The notes under the pieces were generated by a model. The model saw only the letters and a program-made list of their open reading frames with translations, was not told the origin of the DNA and ran no database searches. A stretch of 64,000 bases of DNA from Escherichia coli. GTDB taxonomy: Bacteria; Pseudomonadota; Gammaproteobacteria; Enterobacterales; Enterobacteriaceae. Both the position numbers and the translations under genes were made by a program. Below are positions 35,942 through 36,103 of the stretch, piece by piece (position 1 is the first letter of the stretch; each line of letters opens with the position of its first letter). The DNA is taken from NCBI RefSeq assembly GCF_003018115.1, contig NZ_CP027457.1; one strand, written 5' to 3'.

Positions 35942-36017
35942 GGCCCTTTAGCTCAGTGGTGAGAGCGAGCGACTCATAATCGCCAGGTCGCTGGTTCAAA
36001 TCCAGCAAGGGCCACCA
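35942..36017 (+). tRNA. tRNA-Ile2 (anticodon CAU, ileX/ileZ-like), includes CCA
   Basis: Cloverleaf with acceptor ggccctt/aagggcc, anticodon loop cuCAUaa, GGTTCAAATCC T-arm; close to the E. coli ileX sequence as recalled. Confidence 0.85.
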
Positions 36018-36026
36018 TATCACATA

Positions 36027-36103
36027 CCGCCATTAGCTCATCGGGATAGAGCGCCAGCCTTCGAAGCTGGCTGCGCGGGGTTCGAGTCCTCGATGGCGGT
36101 CCA
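36027..36103 (+). tRNA. tRNA-Arg (anticodon UCG), includes CCA
   Basis: Acceptor ccgccat/atggcgg, D-arm gctc/gagc, anticodon stem ccagc/gctgg with loop cuUCGaa, T-arm cgggg-ttcgagt-cctcg. Confidence 0.8.

Follow-up and report, generated by a model that had tools for sequence, protein, structure and literature searches.

Location and content of the tRNA locus

The window analysed here, a 64 kb stretch of E. coli DNA that is 99.3% identical to and collinear with E. coli JNE151685, contains exactly two tRNA genes, both called by ARAGORN on the + strand. The first, at 35942-36017, is an allele of phage 933W ileZ with anticodon CAT (CAU), a tRNA-Ile2 gene; the second, at 36027-36103, is an allele of 933W argN with anticodon TCG (UCG), a tRNA-Arg gene. 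Both are also recognized by the Rfam tRNA model, and they are separated by a 9-nt spacer, TATCACATA (36018-36026, + strand), that is the same in 933W.

The pair lies within a lambdoid prophage that adjoins ompW and contains no stx gene. Host genes from tdk through ompW occupy positions 1-18519, and the prophage integrase gene follows at 18565-19695. In the early-right region (28495-29562, + strand), Rfam identifies isrK, a C4 antisense RNA and sok, adjoining hokD and a RelE/HTH toxin-antitoxin pair. The antiterminator Q gene is found at 32690-33355 (+ strand; Pfam Phage_antiter_Q, E = 1.3e-90, with PGAP in agreement), followed by a hypothetical membrane protein gene (33609-34322), a small winged-helix ORF with a terminator-like hairpin after it (34680-34697), and, directly upstream of the tRNAs, an N6/N4 DNA methyltransferase gene (34964-35902, + strand; Pfam N6_N4_Mtase, E = 6e-38), the last ~150 nt of which align with sequence that is also found upstream of ileZ in 933W. 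An earlier note on this DNA had placed the tRNA genes downstream of Q in a late-region cargo slot. The slot is as described, the pair lying between Q and the lysis cassette of a lambdoid prophage, where 933W holds stx; the position relative to Q is true but loosely worded, as Q ends at 33355, 2.6 kb upstream, with three ORFs in between, including the methyltransferase gene. Where tRNA matches lie close to prophage sRNAs, a recent study (bioRxiv 10.64898/2026.05.13.724894) has taken them for integration sites; the two in the window belong to the phage's cargo, and the attachment site is about 17 kb away.

Downstream of the pair, the slot contains a gene for a lipoprotein with a TolA C-terminal domain (36382-36810, + strand; Pfam TolA, E = 8e-23), an AraC-like regulator gene (37506-38231, + strand) and a NanS-p-like SASA esterase gene (40096-42060), after which come the lysis and structural genes. 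The product of the TolA-like gene, which directly follows the tRNAs, is a predicted lipoprotein of 142 aa named 'TolA' by PGAP; the gene, at 41% G+C, makes heavy use of AUA and AGA, its module occurs in 122 E. coli genomes, and its product might serve to decoy colicins or phages that depend on TolA. The AraC-family regulator gene, likewise 41% G+C, is reminiscent of the prophage-encoded AraC-like regulators that EHEC has.

The slot also holds five matches to STnc100 (36917-37129, 38889-39084, 39148-39357, 39419-39617 and 39679-39868, all + strand), which score 119-172 bits against an Rfam gathering score of 47 and share the core CACCGGGAGGCACCCGGCACCATG. Four of these units, all lying between the AraC-like and esterase genes, repeat head to tail about every 260 nt. 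According to a 2026 preprint (10.64898/2026.05.13.724894), STnc100 is related to the prophage sRNA PasD, and the copies of the PasA and PasD genes are far from one another and not products of tandem duplication; against this background, four STnc100-like units in tandem look unusual. The methyltransferase 3' end is present a second time (37278-37429, 82% identical to 35747-35898), after the first STnc100 unit and before the AraC-like gene; PGAP annotates this copy as a pseudogene in a near-identical genome, and it is a scar left in the cargo slot by the shuffling of modules. The idea that this copy heads a second tRNA cassette was rejected: homology ends before the putative tRNA promoter pT described below, and neither pT nor a tRNA follows.

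Gene prediction and tRNA identity

The Rfam tRNA model, with a gathering score of 29, aligned over its full length to both genes, with 72.5 bits (E = 6e-14 for the whole window) for the ileZ copy and 55.1 bits (E = 4e-9, likewise) for the argN copy. These scores and E-values exclude chance as the source of the two calls. In the ARAGORN drawings both cloverleaves have 7-bp acceptor stems and normal D, anticodon and T arms, the 3' CCA is encoded in both genes, and the minimum-energy fold of the argN copy is itself the cloverleaf. Two tRNAs with good cloverleaves at 35942-36103 and with anticodons CAU and UCG, as the earlier note had them, were thus recovered by tRNA gene prediction, the check it had proposed: ARAGORN returned the same coordinates and anticodons, and both ARAGORN and Rfam support the two structures.

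The first gene is identical to 933W ileZ at 76 of 76 positions and to K-12 ileY at 70 of 76. ARAGORN labels it 'Met', a label it gives to any CAU anticodon and one that we reject here, as the stem pairs match ileX/ileY and not metT/metU. The pairs C4-G69, C5-G68, C29-G41 and U12-A23, along with A73, are as in ileX/ileY, and the anticodon stem GCGA/UCGC is common to all of these genes; the elongator tRNA-Met genes metT and metU instead have AUCA/UGAU, together with U4-A69 and A5-U68. TilS reportedly distinguishes tRNA-Ile2 from tRNA-Met by the acceptor pairs C4-G69 and C5-G68, and the alignment places both in the ileZ copy. IleRS is said to recognize A73, U12-A23, C29-G41, A37 and A38, every one of which is present in the sequence and alignment. 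Because it has the acceptor and anticodon-stem pairs of ileX/ileY and not those of tRNA-Met, the CAU tRNA is tRNA-Ile2, with C34 presumably converted to k2C and reading AUA. An identical gene is annotated as tRNA-Ile by PGAP, and the identity to 933W ileZ, the near-identity to ileY and the shared stem pairs bear out the Ile2 assignment made in the earlier note.

The argN copy differs from 933W argN at a single position, with T for C in the D loop, and represents the second most common allele in IMG/VR (16 of 66). The anticodon loop, CUUCGAA with G39 after it, has the canonical form found also in host argU and argX. In E. coli the major identity elements for ArgRS are A20, C35 and G/U36, to which A/G73 adds as a minor element of recognition. 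The argN copy has A20, C35 and G36, the first of these being invariant across all K-12 Arg tRNAs in the alignment. A purine discriminator is absent from the argN copy, which has U73 and C1-G72; all K-12 Arg tRNAs have G1 and A/G73, and none of the four types has C1-G72 or U73. As 933W argN has both C1-G72 and U73 too, they are a property of the argN family and not a defect of the copy in the window. The efficiency with which ArgRS would charge such a tRNA is uncertain. The anticodons of the K-12 tRNA-Arg loci compared are ACG, CCG, UCU and CCU, a UCG isoacceptor being absent, and the 933W record puts question marks on its own codon assignments for these tRNAs.

A truncated 933W-type cassette

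A 186-nt block containing both tRNA genes is 98.9% identical to phage 933W and matches 284 phage records, nearly all of them Stx-converting phages. In the 933W annotation (GenBank AF125520, the source of the 933W gene names and functions used here), ileZ (tRNA-Ile, AUA), argN (tRNA-Arg) and argO (tRNA-Arg, AGA) are followed by stxA2/stxB2. The ileZ-argN pair is real and already known, being named in that record and routine in NCBI pipeline annotation, and its first notice, according to PMC3636060, was as an 'ileX' tRNA gene beside stx2 (Y10775; Schmidt et al. 1997). It is also ordinary: at ≥80% coverage, 2083 of 5426 complete E. coli genomes (about 38%) carry the pair, with 1 to 12 matching places per genome when all places are counted.

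Beyond argN, homology to 933W extends across an intact 13-nt argN-argO spacer (36104-36116, + strand, same as in 933W) and stops at 36124, 8 nt into argO. These first 8 nt, GCGTTGTT (36117-36124, + strand, by alignment to 933W), are the remnant of the gene for a tRNA-Arg with anticodon UCU. The 278 nt after the junction are absent from the phage collection and present in 122 E. coli genomes, and we treat the stretch past 36124 as foreign sequence joined within argO. A decayed third tRNA after argN was considered, on the strength of an argO-like alignment beyond the 8 nt and an anticodon-arm-like hairpin, and was rejected, as no tRNA was found at 36104-36300 by relaxed ARAGORN, by Rfam at E up to 10 or by folding.

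The 3' end of the argN scaffold was used as a query against IMG/VR, and cassettes were counted in the first 120 loci. About 48 of these carry Ile-Arg(UCG)-Arg(UCU), 46-49 carry Ile-Lys(UUU)-Thr(UGU)-Gly(UCC), and 12 carry Ile-Arg(UCG) only. The junction seen in the window is common to 12 of the 12 pair-only loci, one of which (L127) retains 13 nt of argO. Since all 12 share it, the cassette in the window is a derived and truncated one that arose once, when the TolA-like cargo module was inserted inside argO. Recombination with a junction 8 nt into the gene has deleted argO, and the truncated cassette shows tRNA genes serving as recombination junctions in a slot for virulence cargo.

The retained genes are well preserved: of 113 IMG/VR copies of ileZ, found in different cassettes and surroundings, 100 are identical, and broken copies are rare in the sample. 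In sister prophages, a Lys(UUU) gene takes the position after ileZ (3078-3154 in both L014 and L015, and in 49 IMG/VR loci between L016 and L135); C33 replaces the near-universal U33 in this gene, its anticodon stem is re-paired by compensatory changes, and PGAP, which calls a tRNA-Lys here in one genome, has no annotation for it in another. When the Lys form of the argN scaffold is compared with the Arg form, pairs 7-66, 27-43 and 30-40 are changed on both sides in compensatory fashion, and it looks as though a single scaffold had switched its anticodon between Arg and Lys. The full Ile-Lys(UUU)-Thr(UGU)-Gly(UCC) cassette spans 3001-3310 in L015 and is present in 46 IMG/VR loci; in the L014 and L015 cassettes the 9-nt spacer is absent, with a 1-nt spacer instead.

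Promoters and predicted transcription

Immediately upstream of ileZ is a promoter-like element (35905-35941, + strand) made up of TTGCAG (35905-35910), a 17-nt spacer and TATTAT (35928-35933), after which the G+C-rich sequence CCTGCGCC extends to the start of the tRNA gene. In 933W the same element is annotated 'pT putative tRNA promoter'. The pT-like block is kept directly upstream of ileZ in four loci that differ further upstream, where the methyltransferase 3' end is found in the window and in 933W and a tR' leader in L014 and L015. The element matches the consensus at 8 of 12 positions, with 3 of 6 in the -35 hexamer, and falls below the threshold of our promoter scan, which did not list it. 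That it acts as a promoter is suggested by this conservation upstream of ileZ.

The promoter scan did identify a pR'-like late promoter, TTGCAA-17-TATATT (33363-33391, + strand), which is followed by a tR'-like hairpin with a T run at about 33442-33467 (+ strand). The leader at 33363-33467 is homologous to the leader found between Q and ileZ in L014 and L015; in the window, ~2.4 kb encoding the membrane protein, the winged-helix ORF and the methyltransferase part it from the tRNA cassette. The 9-nt spacer implies that ileZ and argN would be co-transcribed, and as the pair lies downstream of pR', Q-modified polymerase would be expected to read through to it after induction, following the lambda/933W paradigm.

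Codon usage in prophage and host genes

Codons were counted in 72 annotated CDSs transferred to the window, all of them intact, and the host baseline was widened to 58 genes (19,842 codons). AUA is used at 9.0 per 1000 codons in the prophage and 2.5 in the host (odds ratio 3.7, p = 3e-15), CGG at 14.3 and 3.4 (odds ratio 4.2, p = 1e-26), and CGA at 5.6 and 2.9 (odds ratio 1.9, p = 4e-4). AUA use peaks in the six cargo genes, at 14.7 per 1000 against 2.5 in the 58 host genes. In the two that come first after the tRNAs, which are 40-41% G+C, it is about 28-33 per 1000, with 4 AUA among the 142 codons of the TolA-like gene and 8 among the 241 of the AraC-like gene. AT-rich cargo genes use AUA at 6 to 13 times the host frequency. 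The stx2AB genes of 933W contain 15 AUA in 408 codons. CGG use peaks in the structural genes, at 19.8 per 1000 (5.9-fold). For CGA, neither cargo genes (4.3 vs 2.9 per 1000, p = 0.34) nor structural genes (4.0 vs 2.9, p = 0.21) show a significant rise.

Several observations bear on how far this excess can be tied to the tRNA genes. Phage lambda, which has no tRNA genes, uses AUA at 8.7, CGA at 7.0 and CGG at 10.6 per 1000, and the rare-codon bias is therefore not specific to tRNA-carrying phages. The like excess in lambda agrees with the published finding that codon adaptation did not differ between lambdoid phages that carry tRNA genes and those that lack them (P = 0.93; PMC4631060). The most abundant virion proteins largely avoid rare codons, the major capsid gene having 2 AUA, 2 CGA and 6 CGG in 645 codons and the major tail gene having 0 of the five rare codons. 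Finally, the most enriched rare codons are AGA (6.4 in the prophage vs 1.2 per 1000 in the host, odds ratio 5.3) and AGG (6.2 vs 0.6, odds ratio 11), yet argO, whose tRNA reads them, was lost without replacement.

The earlier note had proposed that the two tRNAs, by decoding the rare codons AUA and CGA, support expression of AT-rich cargo or late genes, and had suggested a comparison of AUA, CGA and CGG use between prophage and host as the check. The comparison bears this out for AUA, enriched 3.7-fold and most strongly in cargo, and for CGG, enriched 4.2-fold; it does not for CGA, raised 1.9-fold overall and flat in cargo and structural genes, and the idea as a whole is further weakened by the bias shared with lambda, by the avoidance of these codons in capsid and tail genes and by the loss of argO. 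The proposal is in essence the hypothesis already written in the 933W record, and it is plausible, its emphasis on CGA being wrong. CGG could be read by the UCG anticodon only by U34 wobble.

Extra tRNA supply as the preferred reading

We consider the best explanation of the locus to be that it holds two functional tRNA genes, derived from a 933W-type cassette and carried by a non-Stx lambdoid prophage, that add rare-codon decoding capacity, and on the sequence evidence we give this reading a probability of roughly 0.65. Under this explanation, ileZ and argN would be transcribed in the lysogen as one precursor from the promoter-like element 9 nt upstream, with further transcription after induction by Q-antiterminated read-through from pR', and host RNases would process the precursor. 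TilS would convert C34 of the ileZ product to lysidine and IleRS would charge it, so that it reads AUA and adds to host ileX and ileY, while the argN product would be charged by ArgRS and would pair with CGA in Watson-Crick fashion, with wobble probably letting it read CGG too. The net effect would be added decoding of codons used ~2-4 times as often by prophage genes as by host genes. Such supply would be a quantitative benefit, a helpful add-on, and the tRNAs cannot be essential. The supply hypothesis is thus partly supported: AUA fits well, CGG fits if U34 wobbles, and CGA does not fit. The literature that we searched contained no relevant report on ileZ or argN, or on Stx phage tRNAs and rare codons.

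Of the other explanations, that in which the lysogen is the beneficiary stays closest to this one. Constitutive expression from pT would raise host translation of AT-rich, horizontally acquired genes, such as those of virulence islands and prophage cargo. In keeping with this, the promoter-like element with its G+C-rich discriminator is conserved immediately upstream whatever lies further up, the cassette has been retained in a prophage without stx, and the cargo genes just downstream, at 40-41% G+C, have the highest AUA use; moreover, the 1 to 12 matching places per genome mean that up to 12 cassette copies would lift tRNA-Ile2 dosage well above that from the two chromosomal genes, ileX and ileY. 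The putative pT, however, has only 8 of 12 consensus positions, and the proposal is a variant of the supply hypothesis that is compatible with it. As an explanation in its own right, we regard it as rather unlikely.

Counter-defence is a less probable account, and we are doubtful of it. Here the cassette would make up for host tRNAs that are lost to tRNA-cleaving toxins or immune nucleases, such as colicin D (for tRNA-Arg), PrrC, VapC and AriB of PARIS, so that translation goes on during induction or superinfection. Such a role has been proposed for phage tRNAs generally (PMC10264068), and the T5 tRNAs Lys(UUU), Thr(UGU) and Asn(GUU) have been demonstrated to act against PARIS, Lys(UUU) and Thr(UGU) being the two main AriB targets (PMC12409363). 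The post-Q slot of sister prophages holds Lys(UUU), Thr(UGU) and Gly(UCC) in 46-49 of the first 120 IMG/VR loci, and that of SfI holds Asn(GUU) and Thr(UGU) (PMC3636060), these sister and SfI tRNAs including PARIS targets; the Lys(UUU) variant also has G39-U40-U41 where E. coli tRNA-Lys has the AriB site U39-C40-A41 (PMC12409363). The Ile-Lys-Thr-Gly cassette may be a counter-defence cassette of temperate lambdoid phages. The sister Thr(UGU) gene keeps the susceptible UAAUC|A sequence. The pair in the window offers less to this account, as ileZ is identical to host ileX/ileY at positions 28-42, argN has the same canonical anticodon loop as host argU/argX, and a nuclease-evasion signature, looked for in both anticodon stem-loops by alignment with host tRNAs, was not found; to our knowledge, no nuclease targets tRNA-Ile2. 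Both tRNA-Ile2 and tRNA-Arg are absent from the listed AriB targets (PMC12409363). A broader version, in which the post-Q tRNA slot would be a swappable counter-defence cassette and not a codon supply, with the Ile2/Arg(UCG) pair directed against an undescribed, colicin D-like attacker of tRNA-Ile2 or tRNA-Arg and the C1-G72/U73 scaffold as part of the evasion, strikes us as a long shot.

Least credible of all is that the tRNA block persists mainly as a homology patch for cargo exchange, its tRNAs being neutral hitch-hikers that contribute nothing measurable: a TolA-like module junction inside argO in 12 pair-only IMG/VR loci and 122 E. coli genomes with the module, the same ileZ beside at least three downstream cassettes and two upstream contexts, and the evidently tolerated loss of argO would all suit such a linker, but ileZ and argN are intact and near-invariant (ileZ identical in 100 of 113 copies), stem changes on the argN scaffold are compensatory, broken copies are rare in the sample, and neutral sequence of the same intergenic regions has diverged.

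Comparison with known systems

The chromosomal counterparts of the prophage ileZ are the E. coli tRNA-Ile2 genes ileX and ileY, which have k2C34 and decode AUA, and with which it shares positions 28-42 and the A73 discriminator. The acceptor stem is the same as that of ileY, from which the prophage gene departs by six substitutions, at positions 20, 26, 27, 43, 44 and 59, so that pair 27-43 is A-C in the prophage gene and G-U in the host gene. While ileX and ileY are chromosomal, the ileZ copy is prophage-borne and is followed 9 nt later by a second tRNA gene.

The ileZ-argN-argO cassette is that of the Stx2 phage 933W and is also found in VT2-Sakai, Min27 and other Stx phages. The window shares with 933W the 9-nt ileZ-argN spacer, the 13-nt spacer after argN and ~90 nt of upstream sequence including pT, and the cassette occupies the same slot in both, between Q/pR' and a nanS-p-like esterase gene and the lysis genes. 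The two differ in that argO is complete in 933W, whereas the window keeps just its first 8 nt, and in that the stx operon lies directly downstream in 933W, whereas the window lacks stx and its slot is filled by the TolA-like lipoprotein gene, the AraC-like regulator gene and the STnc100-type units. In addition, Q of the window (PF06323, 221 aa) belongs to a different family from that of 933W, and the distance from Q to the tRNAs is 2.6 kb in the window vs 0.44 kb in 933W, the methyltransferase gene and two other ORFs lying in the gap.

Cassettes of other content occupy the corresponding position elsewhere. Asn(GUU)-Thr(UGU) cassettes are described downstream of Q in SfI, Sf6, ST64T and phage 21 (PMC3636060). 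In the Ile-Lys(UUU)-Thr(UGU)-Gly(UCC) cassettes of E. coli prophages, the first gene is an identical ileZ in the same slot after a pR'/tR' leader, and the second, Lys(UUU), is built on the argN scaffold, with the same acceptor stem except for pair 7-66, the same T-loop and U73. That second gene differs from argN in its UUU anticodon, C at position 33 and re-paired anticodon stem, and it is followed by different tRNAs; these cassettes lie ~210 nt after Q without intervening ORFs, whereas the pair in the window lies 2.6 kb after Q, beyond three ORFs.
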